From: an uncultured Eubacteriales bacterium
GTDB lineage: Bacteria; Acidobacteriota; Aminicenantia; Aminicenantales; UBA8522
Direction of reading: 5' to 3'
Length of the DNA stretch: 64,000 nt
Assembly: GCA_964445305.1 (NCBI GenBank)
Contig: CAYUKK010000005.1
Location: 6,614-70,613, forward strand
Shown here: piece by piece, positions 46,179 to 58,200 of the stretch
Numbering within the stretch: the first letter of the stretch is position 1
How the letters are laid out: the number at the start of each line of letters is the position of its first letter
Program-made: the position numbers and the translations under genes
The notes under the pieces: model-generated
Told to the model about the DNA's origin: nothing
Seen by the model: only the letters and a program-made list of their open reading frames with translations
The model's database searches: none

Positions 46179-46739
46179 TTACATGTTTAGCAATAACCTC
46201 CGGAGTTCGTTGCCCAAATCTTGAACCCTAGTCACTTTAAGGGCTTTGCAAAGGGCCTTGATAAAAGGATCGCTCATAACATCTTCTAAAGCCTCAGGTG
46301 AAAAAAGGCTGGGCTCCATAACCACTCCTCGGCTTTGTTCCCCGCACGAATTAATGGGACATGACTTCAGCCCCCTGCAATCCTGTTGGCCGCAACCGTT
46401 TTTATCACAAGATTTTAGAGGGATGGAAAGAGTCGTGCCACTACGCAGCTCGATGAAGAGACCACATTTCTCACCACCACCAGGATCGGGAATAAAGCCG
46501 GTCGGGAGGCCACCGAATTCGCTCAAGAAAATCTCATCCCTCGGGAAAAGTAGCGCTTTGATCATTTTTGCTTTAGTCGATAGAGCGCCGATGCGGACCG
46601 TAGCTTCCAATTCGGCTTTTGAGACTCGGGTTTGAGCTGAGATCAGACCAGCTTTTGTGGCACCCACGCCTGCTAGCCCAGCCGAAAGCTGCGCCAACTT
46701 GCTGAGAACTTCTCTTCTCGTCAATCGATTGTTTTTCAT
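46179..46739 (-). CDS. Tat-signal Cys-pentad-repeat protein, paralog 1 (putative substrate of the adjacent radical SAM/SPASM enzyme)
   Basis: 186 aa. N-terminal RREVLSKLAQLSAGLAGVGA (twin-Arg plus hydrophobic region). Repeats CDKNG/CGQQD/CRGLKS/CPINS/CGEQS. Conserved C-terminal SDPFIKALCKALKVTRVQDLGNELRRLL. Confidence 0.6.
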   Translation of the reverse strand: MKNNRLTRREVLSKLAQLSAGLAGVGATKAGLISAQTRVSKAELEATVRIGALSTKAKMIKALLFPRDEIFLSEFGGLPTGFIPDPGGGEKCGLFIELRSGTTLSIPLKSCDKNGCGQQDCRGLKSCPINSCGEQSRGVVMEPSLFSPEALEDVMSDPFIKALCKALKVTRVQDLGNELRRLLLNM

Positions 46740-46778
46740 TGTTTTCGCCTTTAAAGATTTTTGTCTTATTAGATTCGA

Positions 46779-47336
46779 TTAACGGACCAAAAGCCTTCGG
46801 AGCTCGTAGCTCAGACCTTGCGCTGTTGTCACCTTAAGTTGCCTGCAAAGGGCAAGAATGAACGGGTCGTTCATGATCTGTGATAATTCTCTTTCGGAAA
46901 AAATGTTTGATTCACCCGTGAGCATCCCTTGCTTCGGGCAGTAATTTTCCTCACACCCTGACAACTTCGAGCATTTCTGATCTTCGCACCAGTTATAATC
47001 ACAGTCGGCCAGATTGCCACATTTCTGTTTAGAACACGTCTGGCCCTCGAAAAAAAAGTCACATTTTTCTCCTCCCGGGAATGCAGAGAACATGCCCAGA
47101 GGAACACGGCCGAATTCCGCCTGGAAGACATCACGTTGGGGAAAGAGCAGCACTTTGATCGCCTTAGCCATCGCCGCTTCGGCTTTGACGCCAGTGAGGC
47201 TTTCCAAGTCCTTTATTCCGATTCGCGTCTGAGCCCATGAGCTTGCAGGCTTGAGACTGCTGACGCCGCCAAGCAGAGCCAGAAGCTCCATCAATCGCTT
47301 AAAAGCTTGACGCCTGGTAACCTTTTGATTTCTCAT
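46779..47336 (-). CDS. Tat-signal Cys-pentad-repeat protein, paralog 2
   Basis: 185 aa. TRRQAFKRLMELLALLGGVS. Repeats CSKQK/CGNLAD/CDYNW/CEDQK/CSKLSG/CEENY/CPKQG. C-terminal NDPFILALCRQLKVTTAQGLSYELRRLL. Confidence 0.6.
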   Translation of the reverse strand: MRNQKVTRRQAFKRLMELLALLGGVSSLKPASSWAQTRIGIKDLESLTGVKAEAAMAKAIKVLLFPQRDVFQAEFGRVPLGMFSAFPGGEKCDFFFEGQTCSKQKCGNLADCDYNWCEDQKCSKLSGCEENYCPKQGMLTGESNIFSERELSQIMNDPFILALCRQLKVTTAQGLSYELRRLLVR

Positions 47337-47339
47337 TAT

Positions 47340-48734
47340 TTACCCTCCTTTGAAATTTAGTTTTTTTAGGTTGCGGTCCTTATCGGCTGCCTGATATAGC
47401 TCGACAAGGGCCCAAAACTTTTGCGATATCTCCAATTCTCTGCTCATTCTTTTCAAGCAGTAATAAAAGAAAATATTTTCATCAAGATAATATTTCCAGG
47501 TGTGGCAGCTCACTTTCCCCGTCTTTCCGTAGACATAAGGACATCCTCCCATGCAGATTGGCAGGAGCTTGCAGGAGGCGCATTCGAGGTCAAATGGGTT
47601 TCGCTGCCGCCACCTTTCGAGATTCTTCTGCCAGTCTGCCGAGGCCGACTCGAGGAGGTGTCCGACCTCTGCGTGCGATTCAGCTACCTCGTTCCAGCAT
47701 TTAACAATGCCGCCGCGCGGGGTGATGGCGTAGGCGCATTCATGATCCGCCATACAGAAAATATTTCGGCTTTTCGGCACACCAAAAGAGCGGAAGCCCC
47801 GCCTCGCCATTTCGATAGAGGTTTCGAGCTCGAGCAGGGAAAAGTCGTCCTCGCTTAGGCACCATCCGGAGATATCCTGGCAGACCGATGTATAAGCGTA
47901 CGTACGACCTATGTAGAAGCCAACACGCTCTTTTAATGCCTCGCTCTCCAGGATCTCCATTAGATCTAGAATATGATCCTTGTTTGTTTCATCGACGTTC
48001 ATCCGGATGTGGATTTTGAGCTTCGAAGTCGCCTCATGAATATTTTTTAAAATTCTATGGAATGTTCCTCTGCCGTCGGCGAGCGGCCGCCTCCGGTTAT
48101 GAACCGCGGGGGGCCCATCGAGCGTGACTTGGATATGGCTGATCTTGAGTTGGGCCAGCTTTTCAGCGGTCTTGAGGTCAAGCAGGTATCCATTAGTCAC
48201 CATGTCAGCGCTGTAATCAGCTCCGCAGTTCTGGCAGATTTCGATAAACTTTTCCGAAAGGCGTTCGATTAACGACCGGAAGAGCAACGGCTCGCCCCCA
48301 AACCAGGTGACATTGAGCGATTTATGGCTGAACATCCTTTCTTGGACAAATCGGATAACCGCGTCTTCAACGTTTCCGGCCATCGAGGCCGGGTTCCTCT
48401 CTTGGTAACAATAGACGCACCTGAAATTACAGGCCAGGGTGGGGATGATGGTCATGCTCAGGACGCTCTGATCGGTGCACCCCATCTTGTAGTTCTCCTT
48501 CAAAGAGGCGATTTCATCGGCGTCGTCAGGGATCAGGAATCCGTGGTTGATCAGAGCATTCAGAATTTGCGTTGAATTCTTTGCTTTCCAATCTCGGTTG
48601 GGGTTATATAGAATCCGTTTAGCCAGACCAGCTTCGTAGCCTCTTAAAGCAAGGAGCGAAAGAGTATAGAAATTTAGGAAGAGCGTTGTTCCATTGGGAA
48701 GTCTAAGACAATAGTTATACAAAGAAGCTTTCAA
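47340..48734 (-). CDS. radical SAM / SPASM-domain peptide- or protein-modifying enzyme with a ~95-aa N-terminal RRE-like extension
   Basis: 464 aa. CNFRCVYCYQ (CX3CX2C). C-terminal SPASM cysteines CASCKLLPICMGGCPYV. 3-nt and 7-nt gaps to the flanking paralog genes. Confidence 0.8.
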   Translation of the reverse strand: MKASLYNYCLRLPNGTTLFLNFYTLSLLALRGYEAGLAKRILYNPNRDWKAKNSTQILNALINHGFLIPDDADEIASLKENYKMGCTDQSVLSMTIIPTLACNFRCVYCYQERNPASMAGNVEDAVIRFVQERMFSHKSLNVTWFGGEPLLFRSLIERLSEKFIEICQNCGADYSADMVTNGYLLDLKTAEKLAQLKISHIQVTLDGPPAVHNRRRPLADGRGTFHRILKNIHEATSKLKIHIRMNVDETNKDHILDLMEILESEALKERVGFYIGRTYAYTSVCQDISGWCLSEDDFSLLELETSIEMARRGFRSFGVPKSRNIFCMADHECAYAITPRGGIVKCWNEVAESHAEVGHLLESASADWQKNLERWRQRNPFDLECASCKLLPICMGGCPYVYGKTGKVSCHTWKYYLDENIFFYYCLKRMSRELEISQKFWALVELYQAADKDRNLKKLNFKGG

Positions 48735-48741
48735 AGTCCGG

Positions 48742-49299
48742 CTACCTCCGAGCGCTCATCATGTTGAGGAGCTCCTGCGAAAGCTGTTCAGCCGTAGTGA
48801 CATTGAATTCCTTGAAGAGGGCTTTGACAAACGGGTCGGATTTGTGCATGTTCAAAAAATCCTTTGAGCTTGAATCGATATACATCGTGCAGGTCAGGCC
48901 AGTGCAGTTCTGTTTTGAACAATCATTCTCATCGCAGGACTTCAGACCGCAGGTCTGGTTCACACATCCATTTTTCCCACAGGAAGAAGACTGCATGGAG
49001 GATGGTGTCGGCGAGAAAAAGTCGTCACATTTTTGAATCACCCCAAGATCTCCCGATCCCGCCATCAAGGGTGCTCGTCCGAACTCATTGATATAGATTT
49101 CCCGCGTCCCTATAACCAAGATCTTGAGAGATTTTGTCTCTCTGGATAGGGCCTGTGCTTTGGCCAGAGCATCGAAATTGATGCGTCTCGTCTGAGCGAG
49201 AAAGGCCCGAACCTGGGTAGCACTCAGGCCAGCGGCCAGACCGATGATCTTGATCAGACGAGAGATGGCTTCTCTTCTTGAAAGGTGGTTAACTCTCAT
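48742..49299 (-). CDS. Tat-signal Cys-pentad-repeat protein, paralog 3
   Basis: Start set at MRVNHLSRREAISRLIKIIGLAAGLSA (SD AAGGAG 9 nt upstream), giving 185 aa. Repeats CGKNG/CVNQT/CGLKS/CDEND/CSKQN/CTGLT/C. C-terminal SDPFVKALFKEFNVTTAEQLSQELLNMM. Confidence 0.6.
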   Translation of the reverse strand: MRVNHLSRREAISRLIKIIGLAAGLSATQVRAFLAQTRRINFDALAKAQALSRETKSLKILVIGTREIYINEFGRAPLMAGSGDLGVIQKCDDFFSPTPSSMQSSSCGKNGCVNQTCGLKSCDENDCSKQNCTGLTCTMYIDSSSKDFLNMHKSDPFVKALFKEFNVTTAEQLSQELLNMMSARR

Positions 49300-49789
49300 C
49301 AGAATGCTCCTTGGTGAATCATAATGAATCCTATTAATAAGAGACAGAAAACCGCTTTCCCATCTCACTCGAAGGAGAAAATTTTGTTGATTAGGACTTC
49401 ACAACTATCCACCGTTTGGCTCTGAATTTGCTGCTCGGCCCAGAAGATTAGATATTGGGAAAATGATGATTTGATGCCTCTCCTCGGCAAATATAGGAGA
49501 TTTCTTTTCGGCTGTGGTAACTGGGAGGCATCTTAATTATCATTTTCCTGTTTAGCCATCGCCAAGAGATATGAATCACGAAAAAAATGGATGTCAAAGA
49601 CAATTAAAAGCAGTACCTAGTGGGCGAAAATGCATCATAAGCCGCCTCGGCGCCGGGAAAATGCTGAAAATCAGGGGGACATTTCCTTCTGGTCAAAGGA
49701 AAGATTATGAAAAATAATAGGCCGAAGCCTTGGAGTCCAAGAAGAATCCCGGGAGACCCTATGAGGCGGTGGGGGCTTCGAGGCGATAA

Positions 49790-50150
49790 AGGTCAGGTTG
49801 AGGTGGTTGATGTTCCTGTTCACGACCGCAGTGTCTGTCAAGAAGGCGATGATCTTCATCATGGCGCCCCACTTGGGGCAGGTCGAGGGGTCGATTTCAA
49901 AAACCTTGAGGATCATCTCGGCCCAGCCTCGGCGGGGACGGGCTGGAGCTCCTCTTCGACAATACAAAGAGGAAAGAGTGCGAGGCTTGACTTGCGGACC
50001 TTGCCCTGATGGGCGTTGGCATACAACCCGTAATAACGCACCGCGACCTGACCCTTGTCGGGAATGTGGGAGGCGACCCGGGCGATGAACTCTGGGTAGT
50101 CTATCTGCTTCGCCTCTTGGTTGCTTTCCCCACATCCGTGGCAGGAGCAT
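49790..50150 (-). pseudogene. IS91-family (Y2 HUH) transposase C-terminal fragment, frameshifted and N-terminally truncated
   Basis: Two overlapping frames give ...DYPEFIARVASHIPDKGQVAVRYYGLYANAHQGKVRKS and then ...WAEMILKVFEIDPSTCPKWGAMMKIIAFLTDTAVVNRNINHLNL. This matches the IS91-type C-terminus (RYYGxYxN ... CPxCGxxMxIIAxI ... HLGL). No HUH/Y2 catalytic part remains. Confidence 0.5.
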
Positions 50151-50436
50151 CTGTTGGCGGCTCTTCTTGATGAACCCGGCATCGCTCGCGACGTCCCCGT
50201 CTGGAAGTTCATGTTTCCTGCGACTGGAGGGGAAATCAGATTTTTCGACCCCCTCGGTGTCATTCCCAGGCGTGAGTGAGGGTCCGCCCACCAGGATTTT
50301 TTTCGAGATCTTCTCCCGTTTTTCCAAAGATTTGGAGATTGTTAAGGCGTGACCCTAAAATTTGACAAATTAAATAATTTTAATATGAAATAATTGTATA
50401 ATAAAATTAATATTTCCTTAGTTGCGAGGTTATCAG

Positions 50437-51530: not shown

Positions 51531-52787
51531 CTAAAAGATGCGGAAGATGTTGAAACCGACCCGGAAATCGCCGTCTCTCAGACTCAAATCGCCCCCGGGG
51601 AGGTATTGAGCAGCGGTCAGGCCGATCGAATTGGTGACAAAAAACTGGAATACATGCCCGCCAATATTCTTTTCAACGCCCAGTCCCCAGCCAGGATAAC
51701 GATCGTTGTAGCCGGCCAGATGTGGAACCCATTCTGCGATGACGGAGACTTCGTCGAAGACCACGAAGCGCCCTCCGATCCCCAGGGCGAAGGTGCCTTC
51801 CGAATCCGGTTCCCAGAAATTGGTATTGGAGGAAAACGCCGGAACGAGCAGGAGTGAGACCCGGTCGTTGAGCTGGCAGGACAGGCTCACCAGCGCACTG
51901 AGCCGGAACCGGCCTGACCATTCTGCCCCGGGGGGCTCATCCTGGCTAACCAGGCTTCCCCCGGTGTGGAGAGAGGCTGAAAAGGGGAGGGAGCCGTTTC
52001 CTCCCTGTTCAAGGAAGGCCCAATCGACGTTGAATTCCCATTCCTGATAGAGCCTGCTTCGTCCGATCGTCATCATCAGGTCATCTGTTATGCCGTAGCC
52101 GAAGCTGAAGAGGATGTAGGCCGTTCCGTCGAGACCGAAGAAAGAATTCCAACCGCTGGAGACAGCCGGTTGAAAACGGTGCGATATGCGAAACAGGAAA
52201 TCCCCTTTGCCTGGGGTTACGGTTGTCGGTAGGTTGACCAGCCTGGTTCCCCAGAAGACGGGTCTGGAATATCGTCTGGGATTGGAGCTTTGGGCTGGGC
52301 TCTTGCTTTTTAGATTCGGCTGTCTGAACTCGGGGCCGCGGCTAATGAAACCGGGATTGAGAATACCGTTTGCGTCGGTGGAGCTTGCGGCCAGGCTCTT
52401 TATCCACTCCTCGATTTGGCGGATTTGCTCCTCAGTCAAGGGATCATGGTTTAGGGGCATGCGCTTGCCGACAATCCCGGCCGCTCCTTTGACCTTTGCG
52501 ATTAGGTCGCTTTTTTCGGGCGCACCTGGTTCGACAATCTTGAGTTCAGCCTTCTTCAGGCTTGATATCCCGAGAACCGAAGCGAGGAGCGTTTCTTGTT
52601 CCAGGCTTAGGTTGGCCGAAGGGTTTTTGCCCGAATGACAACCTGCGACACTGCAACTTTGCTTCATTATGCTCTTGACTGTGGCCAGAAGATTTGTCGG
52701 AGAATCTCCAGGCCCCTGGCTGTAAAGAGGCGAGCTCAGTGCGAAAAGCACCGTGACCTTGATAATCAACAGGACCTTGGTTTTCAT
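51531..52787 (-). CDS. exported protein with an N-terminal PSCyt1-like cytochrome-c-type domain (CX4CH) fused to a C-terminal beta-barrel (terminal Phe)
   Basis: 418 aa. Signal peptide MKTKVLLIIKVTVLFALSS. MKQSCSVAGCHSG ... GKRMPL ... EEQIRQIEEWIKSLA. Glycine/aromatic-rich C-terminal half ending GFNIFRIF. Confidence 0.5.
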   Translation of the reverse strand: MKTKVLLIIKVTVLFALSSPLYSQGPGDSPTNLLATVKSIMKQSCSVAGCHSGKNPSANLSLEQETLLASVLGISSLKKAELKIVEPGAPEKSDLIAKVKGAAGIVGKRMPLNHDPLTEEQIRQIEEWIKSLAASSTDANGILNPGFISRGPEFRQPNLKSKSPAQSSNPRRYSRPVFWGTRLVNLPTTVTPGKGDFLFRISHRFQPAVSSGWNSFFGLDGTAYILFSFGYGITDDLMMTIGRSRLYQEWEFNVDWAFLEQGGNGSLPFSASLHTGGSLVSQDEPPGAEWSGRFRLSALVSLSCQLNDRVSLLLVPAFSSNTNFWEPDSEGTFALGIGGRFVVFDEVSVIAEWVPHLAGYNDRYPGWGLGVEKNIGGHVFQFFVTNSIGLTAAQYLPGGDLSLRDGDFRVGFNIFRIF

Positions 52788-52859
52788 CCGGCTACTCCTG
52801 TCATGGGGACTTTATTTTGCCAAGTAATCATTCCGGAAATTCGAGCCTTCCCCAAGGGT

Positions 52860-53294
52860 TCAATTATTCTTGGCCCCTTTGTTGATCCAGTTCTTAATGT
52901 TCTGGACGGAATTGGCGTTGAGAGCTGATCCGCCAAGGGGCATCCGGCCGCCGTTTGTCTGCCGGCCTTCGAGTTTGATGACGAGATAACTATTCGTAGC
53001 GTCGTTGGGGATAACCCGCCTTTTCCCCGGTTCTTGGGTTGAGGGCACGTCGACGAGGTTGGCATAAGACTGCCCCTGGAGAAGAATCAATCCCGCCGCA
53101 GCGCTGTTACCGTGGCAGCTTGATGAAATGCAGCTCTGGCTGAAGATCGGCTGAATATCTGAGGCGAATGAGGGATCCTCTTTGACTATGGAGGGGGGCT
53201 GGGGACTGGTGGGGGAATAGCTGCCACAGTGATAGAGAATGACCGCTGCAAGGATAGCTAGGATTGCTATAACGGGCCACGATTTTATGTTCAT
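52860..53294 (-). CDS. exported PSCyt1-like cytochrome-c-type domain protein (CX4CH), paralogous to the N-terminal domain of the upstream gene
   Basis: Start at MNIKSWPVIAILAILAAV (SD AAGGAG), 144 aa. FSQSCISSSCHGN ... GGRMPL ... VQNIKNWINKGA. Confidence 0.5.
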   Translation of the reverse strand: MNIKSWPVIAILAILAAVILYHCGSYSPTSPQPPSIVKEDPSFASDIQPIFSQSCISSSCHGNSAAAGLILLQGQSYANLVDVPSTQEPGKRRVIPNDATNSYLVIKLEGRQTNGGRMPLGGSALNANSVQNIKNWINKGAKNN

Positions 53295-53484
53295 CAGGAG
53301 ACTCCTTATAAAATCTACAAATATTATAGGAATACTAGGAAAAAAAATCAAGTAGCCCTGGCAGAATAGTGGAGGACGGGTCAGGAAGCCGCAGATAGGT
53401 CTAAGAGCCCGGTAATCAGCCAGACCTTTCCTTTCGGGCGAACTGAAGATCATGAACAGTATTCAGCTAAGGTCTCAGCAGCCG

Positions 53485-53889
53485 TCAGAAATTCCTGATA
53501 GACGATATGCGGCACATGGGGCCTCTTGGCGATGAAGGCCAGCTTGAGGCAATGATTGATTTTGACCACCATGGATAATCAGTGGGGAAGGAGATGACCC
53601 ACATGATGCCTCTGCACTGGGCACAAATCAAGAGATTATCGTCGTCCACTTTTCGGACCATTTCGGCCCGGCTTTTGGTGGGGAGACCCAGGAGTATGAC
53701 CTCGAAGACCAGGAAAAGGATTCTTCGTTTCGGCAAAAAAGCCATGTAGTGAAGACCAACTCTCTTGAAAAGGATGGAAGCGATTCGATAAAGTTTGATG
53801 TATTCATCAGAAAAGTCTGCCGCATGGAAGACGGAAGCCCCATCACTACTGGATCCTGTTGGAATCCTATAGGACGGCAGGTGGGCCAC
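53485..53889 (-). pseudogene. degenerate IS200/IS605-TnpA- or RAYT-like Y1 transposase gene (copy B): HUH degraded to HYM, 1-nt indel before the catalytic-Tyr region
   Basis: 134-aa ORF. GLHYMAFLPKRR (cf. HVHLLVSIPPK). YPWWSKSIIASS (cf. LWSRSYFAGS). After a 1-nt frame correction the C-terminus reads ...PHIVYQEFLTAAETLAEYCS*, matching copy A. Confidence 0.35.
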
Positions 53890-54149
53890 TTCAGCGCTTT
53901 GTTGACAATAAAGGATATAGACCTAAAGAATCTTCAAATTTGTCGAACTTTGGTTAAGCCAAGGGCCCCGAATTTTCGATTACCAAGGGCTGCCCGTTTC
54001 GACTGCTGTGATTCGGTTACTGTTTGGGAAAGTGGCCGCCGCTTTGAGTCTTCGACAGAAGAATTAAGGTAAAAACACAAAAAACAAAAGGATAAAGGCG
54101 GCAAGAAATTTATACAGCCGAAGTCTGTGTCTCGCAAGTCTTCAGGAAA

Positions 54150-54986: not shown

Positions 54987-56069
54987 CTATCTCTTAGGGA
55001 CCGGCGGGTAGTAGATCAAAAGATAAGAGACGCGCTCGGATTCGCCGATGTAGATTTCGCCGTTCGGTCCGACGGCCAGAGCGCTGATGTCATAGCAGAC
55101 CCAGTTTTTGGGGAAATGGACCATCGGGATACCCAGGTCCTTGACTTCTCCGGTCCGGGGATTCCAGCGAAAAAGATGAGAGTTCTTTCCCGGGCTTCCG
55201 GCGGCACCGTAGAGGACTCCCTCTTTCCCAAAAGCCAGGGCTCTGATCCGGTGGTCGGAAATTGGCCGGCCGTAGCCGATGATTTTAAGAGTCTTGGTGT
55301 TCAGGCTGAAGATTGTTCCCAGGAGCGTACCGCCGTAAATCGTTTTCTGGCCATCGAACACGGTAGAGTCAAGAGCATTGAGGAACTCCATTCCCTTCGG
55401 CGACGGAAGCTGGAGGTCAAGCGTCTCCACCCTTTCGTTGGCGATCGAATAGCGGAAGATATGACCGTTTTTCGCCGAGCCGAAGATATGGCCGCGGCTG
55501 TCGAGGGCCATAGCATTGGATTTTTCAGCGCCCTCGATGGCCTGAATCTTCCGGCTCGTCCTTTTTTCTATATCGATTTCGACGAGAGCGGATGTCTTCC
55601 GGGTCAGAGCGAAAATCTTTCCAACCCCTGGCTCCAAGACAGCACAGGCCGCATCTTCATCCAGCGCAAAATCAAGGAATTCGATAGGATTGACTTGGTA
55701 TTTCCAAAGGACGGAGAACTCACCTTCAGGAGAATAACGAAAGAGTCGTCCGGAAGGGTTGACGATTCCCCAGATGACTCCGCTCCCGTCTTTCATCAGC
55801 AGCCGGCATTCCGCATCTTCTCCCAGAACGCCGATGTCGACAACGTGTTCGGCTGCCGGGCTCGGATCATAATAAAACAAATGGGATTTTTTTCCTGAAG
55901 TTGCGCCGTAGATTTTTTTCTGCTTCTCCCCGGGGACAAGCGCCGTGATCGCCGATTCGCCGTTCGGGATGGGTGGCGTAACTCCATAATGGCCGAGTTC
56001 TCGGAGGGCCAGCGTTCCTTCGGTGATGAAAGCGAAGGCCCCATCGCGAAAATCGGCTGTGCCGGTCAT
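54987..56069 (-). CDS. beta-propeller-fold hypothetical protein (paralog 1)
   Basis: Start at MTGTADFRDGAF (SD AAGGAG). Repeated ~45-aa blades with G-x-hydrophobic patterns (IYGGTLLGTIF, VLYGAAGSPGK). Confidence 0.4.
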   Translation of the reverse strand: MTGTADFRDGAFAFITEGTLALRELGHYGVTPPIPNGESAITALVPGEKQKKIYGATSGKKSHLFYYDPSPAAEHVVDIGVLGEDAECRLLMKDGSGVIWGIVNPSGRLFRYSPEGEFSVLWKYQVNPIEFLDFALDEDAACAVLEPGVGKIFALTRKTSALVEIDIEKRTSRKIQAIEGAEKSNAMALDSRGHIFGSAKNGHIFRYSIANERVETLDLQLPSPKGMEFLNALDSTVFDGQKTIYGGTLLGTIFSLNTKTLKIIGYGRPISDHRIRALAFGKEGVLYGAAGSPGKNSHLFRWNPRTGEVKDLGIPMVHFPKNWVCYDISALAVGPNGEIYIGESERVSYLLIYYPPVPKR

Positions 56070-56153
56070 GATTTCCGACTCCTTAAGGTGGTAGCTCGGC
56101 TCGGCCCCACGTTCGTTTTCGCGCTGGGGATGATTTTTTTCTTTATTCGTCAT

Positions 56154-57329
56154 TCATCTCCTCCAGTCGAGAGAGTCAAGATCGACCATGAGAAGTCGGG
56201 GAACGGCCTTCATGTTGACCTCGGCAAAATAAAGGGTCCGGCCGTCTGGTCCCAGGGCTCCCTCAGAAAGCCAGGCAGTCGCATTATCTCCGAAATCGAG
56301 ACGCGCAACGACCCTGCGCTGACCACTCTCGATATCCAAGACCACAAGGTTCGTCGGTTCCCAGATGGTGTTGCACCCGTAAAAAAGCCAGCGGTTTTCA
56401 TAAAGGACCGGAGCCTGGACATAAGGGGGCGTCCAGTCGCGGCCGTTCCATCCCCCCGGCCAGCCGAAGCCGTAGTCCTCAATAGCCGGCACGGGTCCCG
56501 CATCCGGGTTAATCCGGAAAATATGGCCGTCGTAATATCCCGTAGCACAGATGAAATCGTCCCGAAATCTTTTGGCGTTGAAAAAGAAATTGTAGAGGCG
56601 CTCGCGGCCCGGAATGCCAGGGACGCGAAGCGGGAGGTCCTCGAACTCATCTTTTTCGGGCGAATAGCGGAAGAAGCGGCCTTCGTCGTAGGATCCGTAG
56701 ATGAGGCCTCGCGCATCGGCGAAAATTTCGAACCCGCCCCAGGTTCCAATTCGGCCCACAAGCCGTGACTGACAGGAGGCAAGGTCGTATTCATAGAGAC
56801 AGTGCCGCGGGTAGCTAACGAGATAGGCCCTGTTCAGGCGTTCGTTGATCTCCATTGATCGGCAGCCCTCATGAGGGATGGCGAGGCCAACGTATTCGGC
56901 TTCACCCGTGGCCAGTTTGACCCGGAACATCTGCGCTCCGCGAAACCCGTAAATCGGGTCGCCAAAAGTCCCGTTCACCTCGAAAAGCTTTTCCCCTAAG
57001 CAAGGGGCCGTACAGTGGCTGACTCCGTAGAGAAAGCCGTCTTCTGTTTCCCGAAGGCAGGTGTGGATCTTGCTCTGAGGGACCCGGCCAGAGTCATAAG
57101 GATCGTCGGCCAGCTCGCCGATATCGAAAAGGTCCCAGAGGCGTTTCTCCTCCGGGTCGAAGCGGAGAAGATGAGCGCTCGAAGCCCGGCCCTCGCTACA
57201 GCTTGAAAAGTAGATCCGACCGTCGCTGGCCGAATGGACGGCCCAAAGGCTGTCGTGGTTCGGGTCGACACTCCAGGTCGAAATTTTGAAAGCGCCGAAT
57301 TCAGAAAGATGAAATTCAACCCTTTTCAT
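56154..57329 (-). CDS. beta-propeller-fold hypothetical protein (paralog 2)
   Basis: 391 aa. Colinear with paralog 1 (FHLSEFGAFKIST vs DFRDGAFAFITEG). Confidence 0.4.
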   Translation of the reverse strand: MKRVEFHLSEFGAFKISTWSVDPNHDSLWAVHSASDGRIYFSSCSEGRASSAHLLRFDPEEKRLWDLFDIGELADDPYDSGRVPQSKIHTCLRETEDGFLYGVSHCTAPCLGEKLFEVNGTFGDPIYGFRGAQMFRVKLATGEAEYVGLAIPHEGCRSMEINERLNRAYLVSYPRHCLYEYDLASCQSRLVGRIGTWGGFEIFADARGLIYGSYDEGRFFRYSPEKDEFEDLPLRVPGIPGRERLYNFFFNAKRFRDDFICATGYYDGHIFRINPDAGPVPAIEDYGFGWPGGWNGRDWTPPYVQAPVLYENRWLFYGCNTIWEPTNLVVLDIESGQRRVVARLDFGDNATAWLSEGALGPDGRTLYFAEVNMKAVPRLLMVDLDSLDWRR

Positions 57330-57342
57330 GGCTCGGCGAGTC

Positions 57343-58200
57343 TTATTTTAGCATCAGGAGGACGATGCCTGCCAGGCCGATGACAATTCCGAGATAGCCT
57401 GTCGGTCTGATTTTCTCTCTAAAAAAAAGAAGAGAGAGGAGCACAGCGGCGACGACCGGAGCCGAAAGGACGACGGGAAAGACAATAGTCTCCGGAAGCT
57501 TCGTCAGGGCTTTGAGGGTAAAAAAGTTACCGGCCACGCTTCCGGCTGCCGCCAGCGCTCCGAAAGAGAAGACGTTTCCGTCCAGCCGGATCTTCTTCGC
57601 GGCGAAAAAAATCATGAATGCGAGCGCTCCGAAAAGAAAGGTCAGGAAAAGGTAGAACCATAAATTGAGGGCGCTCAGCCGCACAGCCGCGGCCTGAGAT
57701 AATTGAGGAATTCCGGCCAGCAAGAACGCCGCCGCCAGGAAGAGCAGCCACCTTAGCCAAAGCCCTGTCCTTTTATTTTCAGCCGTCGAGCCGGAGGTTG
57801 AAATAAGGGCGATGCCGATGACGATAAAGATGATCCCGAGAGCCAGGATTGTCCCGAATGATCTCTTCCAGAAAATGACAGAAAAGACGACGGGGATGAG
57901 GAACGTCATCGTGTAAATCGAAATGGTCAGAGCATAATTTCCGATTTTGAGAGCACTGAGGAAAAAGAAATAGGCTACCGCGCCGCCGACGCCTCCTCCG
58001 GCGGCGAGGAGGACGACCGGAAGCGAGATGTGGAGCGGTTGGCGCAGGAAAAGGAGAAAAAGACAGCAGAAAAAAGAGGCCATCGCGAACAATGAGCCTG
58101 TCAGCGTGGCTGAGGAGTGTCCTTTGAGGCTTCCCATTTTCATGACGAAATTCGTAACGACAAACCCGGCGACAACCAGCGCGAGAAAGACCCAGCCCAT
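57343..58200 (-). CDS. DMT-superfamily (EamA-like) transporter
   Basis: 285 aa, ~10 TM helices, two EamA-like halves. Confidence 0.65.
   Translation of the reverse strand: MGWVFLALVVAGFVVTNFVMKMGSLKGHSSATLTGSLFAMASFFCCLFLLFLRQPLHISLPVVLLAAGGGVGGAVAYFFFLSALKIGNYALTISIYTMTFLIPVVFSVIFWKRSFGTILALGIIFIVIGIALISTSGSTAENKRTGLWLRWLLFLAAAFLLAGIPQLSQAAAVRLSALNLWFYLFLTFLFGALAFMIFFAAKKIRLDGNVFSFGALAAAGSVAGNFFTLKALTKLPETIVFPVVLSAPVVAAVLLSLLFFREKIRPTGYLGIVIGLAGIVLLMLK

Follow-up and report, generated by a model that had tools for sequence, protein, structure and literature searches.

What is gained by building a cytochrome-c-type domain into the same polypeptide as an outer-membrane β-barrel, and what part is played by a second such domain, apparently lipid-anchored, that is encoded directly beside it? 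These questions are raised by positions 51531-53294 of a 64,000-nucleotide stretch of contig CAYUKK010000005.1 from an Aminicenantes bacterium (the window, by which the whole of this stretch is meant), a segment which is a two-gene operon on the minus strand. The upstream gene (52860-53294) encodes a predicted lipoprotein of 144 residues and of the monohaem cytochrome-c type, the small partner, and is followed after 72 bp, on the same strand, by the gene for a 418-residue cytochrome-barrel fusion (51531-52787, including the stop codon at 51531-51533). An earlier interpretation, referred to here as the sequence-only reading, had proposed that both genes encode exported proteins with a cytochrome-c-type domain in which four residues separate the haem-binding cysteines (CX4CH), and that the larger protein continues into an outer-membrane β-barrel. 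Both proposals have held: translation and conservation among homologues place an exported protein with a CX4CH domain of about 105 residues at each gene, and a match to Pfam family PF19089 together with twelve confidently modelled strands (predicted local distance difference test, pLDDT, above 90) identifies the barrel.

The two haem-type domains share a common origin, with 27% identity between them (E 5e-10). In the small partner a signal peptide (53226-53294), recognised from the translation and the homologues, ends in a lipobox-like LYHC of which Cys23 is the predicted lipidation site; a proline-rich tether then leads into the domain, where CISSSCH at residues 55-61 (53112-53132) forms the putative haem-attachment motif and the methionine of an RMP at residues 117-119 (52938-52946) is the predicted distal axial ligand. 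The sequence LYHC deviates from the canonical lipobox L-[AS]-[GA]-C, though its cysteine, placed after a hydrophobic stretch, is nearly invariant among the homologues. The fusion likewise carries a signal peptide, and its N-terminal domain, assigned by homology to the small protein, occupies residues 30-136 (52380-52700), with CSVAGCH at residues 45-51 (52635-52655) and RMP at residues 109-111 (52455-52463). Among the homologues aligned, C45, C50, H51, M110 and P111 of the fusion are invariant, as are C55, C60, H61, M118 and P119 of the small protein. CX4CH itself is kept in all 120 of the best small-protein homologues and in 114 of the best 120 fusion homologues, while four others have CXXCH at the same position.

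Is CX4CH, which the sequence-only reading had set against the CXXCH normally associated with the domain, then a peculiarity of this locus? The wider family indicates otherwise. The 330 copies of the domain found in the best 147 new representative proteins comprise 184 with CX4CH, 126 with CXXCH and 6 with CX3CH, proportions that are biased towards CX4CH because the query profile was of that type, and 33 of the 147 proteins mix CXXCH and CX4CH copies within one chain. When 45 copies of both kinds are aligned the two motifs differ by a clean two-residue indel directly after the first cysteine, and both cysteines, the histidine, a serine, the Met-Pro pair and a tryptophan are invariant throughout. 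The conservation of CX4CH among the close homologues is far beyond chance, and judged from these alignments the motif appears as a genuine haem-attachment variant here that is common in this domain family. Such a spacing is not foreign to haem c, for it is an established attachment motif in cytochrome c3, and CX4CH is counted as a haem motif in published screens (PMC10734462). The likeness of the window domains to tetrahaem cytochrome c3 lies in the four residues between the haem-binding cysteines. Cytochrome c3 is a multihaem protein with bis-histidine ligation and a class III fold, whereas the window domains would be monohaem and of class I type with a conserved methionine. Both window proteins combine a Cys-Xn-Cys-His motif, an aligned distal methionine and a predicted class I-type fold, which are among the features by which a c-type cytochrome is recognised.

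The family to which the domain belongs is less simply named. The sequence-only reading had called it PSCyt1-like, and a direct assignment of the window proteins to PF07635 (PSCyt1) had to be rejected, since hmmscan gave no match at E≤1 for either protein (the gathering score is 22 bits). Their best Pfam cytochrome matches are to Cytochrom_C (E 0.09) and Cytochrome_CBB3 (E 0.06), and the sole NCBIfam match is to the SO2930 dihaem family at 0.14. Sixty homologues of the small protein touch Cytochrome_CBB3 in 33 cases, Cytochrom_C in 27, PSCyt1 in 15 (best E 3.7e-6) and the CTI haem domain in 10, this last over a shared C-terminal helix motif only; PSCyt1 is also matched by 5 of 60 fusion homologues, and the PSCyt1 matches are mostly sub-threshold. 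When 1.84 billion representatives are searched with a small-protein profile, 19,917 clusters (at 50% identity) are retrieved at E≤1e-3, of which 6,433 remain at E≤1e-10. Tandem arrays of 2-10 copies of the domain beside CHRD, Ig-like or fn3 domains occur in many of the relatives, and several multi-copy relatives exceed the PSCyt1 gathering threshold. What stands of the earlier assignment is therefore transitive: through the small-protein homologues and the multi-copy relatives, CX4CH copies among them, the domain is, as far as sequence goes, of PSCyt1 type by transitive homology only. The best-scoring stretches of the PSCyt1 model in two relatives, P0242 and P0245, are moreover CX4CH copies, which lowers the novelty of the motif in the way that the sequence-only reading had itself foreseen for CX4CH members within PSCyt1. 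PSCyt1 is usually described with CXXCH in proteins of the DUF1549/DUF1553 type and not in outer-membrane barrels. The available text of the few papers that mention PSCyt1 or PF07635 contains no functional study of the domain, no paper was found that mentions DUF5777 (the family of PF19089) by name, and none of the papers mentioning both Aminicenantes and Cyc2 concerns the cytochrome-barrel fusion. One relative, P0254, is a eukaryote-like, Thr/Ser-rich protein of 3575 residues in which seven copies of the domain have lost both haem cysteines (…VSWGHG…); from their sequence these copies look like a haem-less derivative of the domain.

A structural reference is provided by FoxE, the dihaem Fe(II) oxidase of Rhodobacter ferrooxidans SW2. 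A mixed-family profile matches FoxE (PDB 5mab) with E 1.1e-11 over both of its repeats, with CXXCH and RMP in register, ahead of the C-terminal haem domain of hydrazine synthase alpha (E 6e-6) and the cytochromes c6 (from E 3e-5), and by this measure FoxE is the nearest solved relative. The axial haem ligands of FoxE are Met94 and Met208, with CXXCH at 37 and 147 (PMC10654088), and this spacing of 37/94/147/208 corresponds to 91/148/201/262 in the 5mab chain, where CXXCH lies at 91 and 201 and the RMP methionines at 148 and 262. Since the RMP methionine of the window domains aligns with the axial methionine of FoxE, it is the expected sixth ligand. Each methionine in FoxE ligates the haem of the other repeat (PMC10654088), such that a crossed heterodimer of two single-repeat proteins is possible. 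The resemblance has clear bounds. FoxE is soluble and periplasmic, has two repeats per chain with CXXCH, and is accompanied by foxY (a pyrroloquinoline quinone-type propeller) and foxZ (a membrane transporter), whereas the window pair consists of two single-repeat CX4CH proteins, one with a predicted lipid anchor and the other fused to a barrel, with no conserved foxYZ-like neighbours. Thus, the fusion is not a FoxE orthologue, but its haem domain and that of the small partner are FoxE-like by sequence and fold.

What of the barrel? Residues 178-418 of the fusion (51534-52256), from the start of FWGTRLVNLPTT to the terminal ...NIFRIF, match PF19089 (DUF5777, ‘membrane bound beta barrel’) with 185.2 bits and E 1.6e-54 over profile positions 1-247 of 247, where the cut-off is 23.1 bits. 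All 60 aligned fusion homologues match DUF5777 as well, and four of them show additional weak matches to Phenol_MetA_deg. The AlphaFold2 model of the fusion (overall pLDDT 81) comprises a helical cytochrome domain at residues 30-139 and twelve strands with pLDDT above 90, separated by a linker that falls below 50 at residues 137-170 and is poorly conserved in the homologue alignment, on which grounds residues 137-177 (52257-52379) are predicted to be disordered. The conserved FWGTRLVNLPTT segment (residues 178-196) lies directly before strand 1 and is modelled confidently. A signal peptide, an even number of amphipathic strands that closes the barrel and an aromatic residue at the C-terminus (...GFNIFRIF) together have the character of an outer-membrane β-barrel. 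The closest folds are FapF, which ranks top, KdgM, the COG4313 channel, NanC and autotransporter barrels. The first four are twelve-stranded outer-membrane channels that contain no cytochrome and share no sequence family with the fusion. FapF is laid out as a periplasmic N-domain, a linker and a twelve-stranded barrel, and the layout of the fusion is the same. The strand connectors alternate between a long set (17, 13, 12, 6 and 23 residues, with one outlier of 4) and a short set (4, 10, 4, 2 and 2 residues), a pattern expected if the long connectors are external loops and the short ones periplasmic turns; the start of strand 1 and the end of strand 12, and hence both ends of the barrel, are accordingly predicted from the model to be periplasmic. 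The sequence-only reading had spoken of extracellular electron transfer, a suggestion for which no support emerged, as no evidence puts the haem domain outside the cell.

The association of barrel and haem domain extends well beyond this locus. The closest public proteins come from metagenome bins of Aminicenantes, and more than 5,000 homologues of the fusion were present among the candidates scored. In a survey of one genome per species, 64 fusion loci were found, mostly from Aminicenantes, with others from Rhodothermales, Salinibacter, Salinivenus, Calditrichia, KSB1, Zhuqueibacter, UBP1 and more. The small gene adjoins the fusion gene on the same strand in 31 of the 44 loci with room on both sides, which it precedes in Aminicenantes and follows in Rhodothermales, Salinibacter, Calditrichia and Zhuqueibacter. 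All other neighbours vary between loci, and among the loci compared none is conserved with the pair outside Aminicenantes. The small partner is present beside 29 and absent beside 9 of the fused genes with CX4CH, against 2 and 4 of those with CXXCH, counts that are too small to link motif and partner. In Acidobacteriota a further DUF5777 subfamily of about 355 residues (represented by L065 5434-6702 and proteins P0392-P0423) carries a canonical CXXCH cytochrome c, scoring above the PF13442 and PF00034 thresholds, on a very short linker. DUF5777 has thus acquired two distinct kinds of cytochrome c domain, which speaks for the barrel being functionally coupled to a haem domain at its N-terminal end. 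With more than 5,000 homologues, this second subfamily and the fused cytochrome-porin Cyc2 already known (PMC8406198), the fusion is no singular arrangement, although the sequence-only reading had described it as unusual. Barrel-only DUF5777 proteins of about 284-299 residues also exist. At a Calditrichia locus (L051 3683-5644, minus strand) a barrel-only DUF5777 gene forms a second set with a gene for a CX4CH (CASGNCH) lipoprotein on the same strand, one YceI-like open reading frame (ORF) lying between the two; this set is beside the fused pair and on the strand opposite to it.

How might such a pair work? Domain homology, motif conservation, barrel fold and gene pairing are the demonstrated part of the answer. 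The functional picture built upon them draws on homology and models: that haem is incorporated, that the domains face the periplasm, that the two proteins form a heterodimer, which substrate they use and which way the electrons flow are inferences. The reading put forward here, tentatively and as a possibility that falls somewhat short of an even chance, is a self-contained two-gene outer-membrane redox module, a ‘split FoxE’ placed on a narrow channel, that exchanges electrons with a small solute. Both proteins would be exported, and in each the CX4CH motif would bind a single c-type haem, its histidine and the RMP methionine serving as axial ligands. The small protein would be lipid-anchored via its proline-rich tether at the inner face of the outer membrane, and the haem domain of the fusion would be kept by the flexible linker at the periplasmic side of its own twelve-stranded DUF5777 barrel. 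The two paralogous haem domains would then cooperate in the manner of FoxE, a notion that follows from FoxE being the same domain duplicated in one chain. Electrons would be exchanged with a small redox-active solute, of which Fe(II) is the most plausible, that passes through the narrow barrel, and would then be handed to periplasmic carriers. Of the nearest relatives, FoxE is described as acting in Fe(II) oxidation (PMC10654088). The other, PccH, is described as taking up electrons from electrodes. Cyc2 offers the precedent of one haem on a porin whose pore the iron must enter (PMC8406198).

Several points weigh against this picture. Haem binding by both domains is a prediction from sequence, the haem-motif region is modelled with low confidence, and neither window protein reaches the threshold of any Pfam cytochrome family. 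Twelve-stranded barrels of this type are often plugged. Two haems alone cannot span the membrane, which excludes a wire-like conduit. No respiratory or iron gene was found to be consistently linked to the pair in the loci compared, and a cluster of extracytoplasmic function (ECF) sigma factor, anti-sigma-like and TonB_C genes seen near the pair in other Aminicenantes is absent from the window. The host lineages, moreover, include presumed fermenters and aerobic halophiles which are not known to oxidise iron.

A bolder form of the same idea would make the DUF5777 barrel with its two FoxE-like CX4CH domains a third, hitherto unrecognised class of minimal outer-membrane iron or metal oxidoreductase, beside Cyc2 and MtoAB/PioAB, in which the lipoprotein and the barrel-tethered domain would assemble into a FoxE-like pair of haems where the narrow channel opens; this must be regarded as doubtful. 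How close does it come to the systems already described? Cyc2, found in Mariprofundus, Acidithiobacillus and Gallionellaceae, is a fused cytochrome-porin Fe(II) oxidase which resembles the fusion in its signal peptide, single N-terminal c-type haem motif, C-terminal barrel and length of about 400 residues, and in that the substrate is expected to enter the pore (PMC8406198). Cyc2, however, has CXXCH, a short cytochrome region and a 16-stranded porin like OprO/OprP, whereas the fusion has CX4CH, a full FoxE/PSCyt1-type domain of about 105 residues, a disordered linker of about 40 residues, a 12-stranded DUF5777 barrel with FapF, KdgM and NanC as its fold neighbours, and a paired lipoprotein cytochrome. 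The fusion is an analogue of Cyc2 in its logic and apparently not a member of the Cyc2 family, as the strand number (12 against 16) and the different fold neighbours indicate. The MtrAB, PioAB and MtoAB systems share with the window pair an outer-membrane barrel that is genetically coupled to c-type cytochromes, but these are 26-stranded barrels around a decahaem wire (PMC8406198), where the window pair has 12 strands and two putative single haems.

The same features have to be set against other uses of a barrel and a haem domain. The barrel might translocate its own N-terminal haem domain, as an autotransporter does, leaving the linker within the pore and the haem domain in contact with extracellular substrates. 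Autotransporter barrels do appear among the fold matches, yet FapF, KdgM and the COG4313 channel outscore them, and the resemblance to type Va autotransporters is one of barrel fold only: no match to Autotransporter (PF03797) at E≤1 is found in the window proteins or the fusion homologues, and no helix that could occupy the pore is predicted in residues 137-196. An autotransporter passenger is a β-helix, whereas that of the fusion would be a small haem domain, and a haem domain folded in the periplasm around its covalently bound haem would presumably be a poor substrate for a 12-stranded pore, so that surface display of this kind is unlikely. The barrel could alternatively be a dedicated exporter, in the manner of Slam for surface lipoproteins or of FapF for amyloid subunits, which brings the lipoprotein cytochrome to the cell surface and uses its fused domain as a homotypic docking site. 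The strict pairing of barrel and lipoprotein genes amid variable surroundings, FapF as the best fold match and the paralogy of cargo and N-domain would all suit such an arrangement. It is nonetheless quite improbable, as 13 of the 44 loci have no adjacent lipoprotein gene for the fused gene, the Acidobacteriota subfamily places a canonical cytochrome c on the same barrel with no small partner adjoining it in the one locus examined (L065), and the supposed docking domain retains every haem ligand, for which a mere adaptor has no need.

Other alternatives concern the haem domains themselves. These might be catalytic or protective, either as a CTI-like enzyme acting on outer-membrane lipids or hydrophobic substrates that arrive via the barrel, or in the detoxification of peroxide or other oxidants. 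The CTI matches among the small-protein homologues do not reach beyond the shared C-terminal helix motif, the six-coordinate His/Met haem that we infer is typical of electron carriers, and the upstream gene does not recur with the pair; a role of this sort is very unlikely. Could the domains have ceased to be haem proteins altogether, with CX4CH binding a metal or forming a disulfide in a domain that descends from a cytochrome c and now has a binding or structural role? The sub-threshold Pfam scores would agree with this, and P0254, whose seven copies lack both cysteines, indicates that haem-less derivatives exist. Against it stand the invariance of both cysteines, the histidine and the Met-Pro pair across CXXCH and CX4CH copies, the presence of CXXCH in orthologues at the place of CX4CH, the tandem arrays in which both motifs are found, and the acceptance of CX4CH as a haem motif in cytochrome c3 and in motif screens noted above, which together render a non-haem role highly improbable.

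If the family does bind haem and is active in the outer membrane, it adds a compact and very widespread cytochrome-barrel design to the routes by which cells exchange electrons with dissolved metals, for which Cyc2 and the Mtr/Pio/Mto type are those known so far. The window copy is an ordinary member of this large uncharacterised family, and the family is a variation on the cytochrome-porin theme. Its carriers in Aminicenantes, Calditrichia, KSB1 and Rhodothermales are organisms about whose redox ecology almost nothing is known, and were the third-class reading true, an unsuspected capacity for iron oxidation or reduction would exist in Aminicenantes, Rhodothermota, Calditrichota and related uncultured lineages. 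CX4CH, though usually treated as a rarity of the multihaem cytochrome c3, is a majority motif among the copies sampled from a domain family of some 20,000 clusters; haem surveys that rely on CXXCH only will therefore miss many monohaem cytochromes, and the Pfam cytochrome models also under-detect this branch.

The start of the operon is defined by several signals. AAGGAG, a Shine-Dalgarno-like sequence, precedes the ATG of the small gene (53294), and AGGAG serves as the putative ribosome-binding site before the ATG of the fusion gene (52787), which together with the ORF supports that gene call. A sigma-70-like promoter candidate for the two genes, TTGATT-17-TATAAT (53323-53351, minus strand; 10/12 matches in a consensus scan, a pattern match only), is situated 29 nt before the start codon of the small gene and within a longer ORF of 197 residues that begins at 53453. 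This longer start for the small gene was rejected from the positions of the promoter and ribosome-binding site and from the length of the homologues (140-147 residues), which together favour the 144-residue start.

Around the pair, related loci of Aminicenantes have their own recurrent neighbours. When the ORFs of 66 loci related to that of the window were clustered, a 272-residue membrane protein, an ECF sigma factor and anti-sigma-like, TonB_C and LiaF-like proteins emerged as confined to Aminicenantes, none of them being found in the window or in the distant phyla. The membrane protein, which has no Pfam match, lies directly upstream of the pair in 20 loci, and the ECF sigma, anti-sigma-like and 450-530-residue TonB_C genes lie downstream of and convergent to the pair in L001 (11322-13943) and 17-19 other loci. 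These flanking genes are taken as synteny, which may reflect inherited gene order or a regulatory link and hints at signalling in the envelope or by iron weakly at best. The neighbours in the window are instead a MarR regulator, an ORF that may be what is left of a transposase gene, and a gene for an exported desulfoferrodoxin-like protein; the absence of the usual flanking genes suggests a rearranged region. The possible transposase remnant (49671-50327, minus strand) is a 218-residue ORF without a Pfam match, accompanied by several overlapping ORFs, and the guanine plus cytosine fraction falls to 0.49 in 46-50 kb as compared with 0.54-0.58 elsewhere in the window.

None of the other likely exported genes of the window contains a C-X2-4-CH motif. 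On the far side of about 700 bp with short, unconvincing ORFs only (53454-54149), the minus-strand segment 54150-54722 encodes an exported desulfoferrodoxin-like protein of 123 residues (PF01880, E 4e-7, CNLHG motif), followed by a 60-residue two-helix membrane protein with a weak Ferric_reduct match. Together these two look like a small redox pair of the cell envelope, and they are not retained alongside the cytochrome operon. Further along, 54987-57329 (minus strand) holds genes for two adjacent proteins of about 390 residues with weak matches of the β-propeller type (DUF6923, DUF5074, Tachylectin), adjoined by an EamA transporter gene (57343-58200, minus strand). A foxEYZ-like reading of these propeller-like and transporter genes was rejected, given the lack of signal peptides, the weak Pfam matches and the lack of conservation with the pair. 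On the other side of the operon, at 46179-49368 (minus strand), three ORFs whose N-termini are twin-arginine-like (46179-46739, 46779-47336 and 48742-49368) lie on either side of a radical S-adenosylmethionine gene (47340-48734; PF04055), and the ORF of 208 residues ends in a cysteine-rich run, CGKNGCVNQTCGLKSCDENDCSKQNCTGLTC; this region may be a peptide-maturation cluster.

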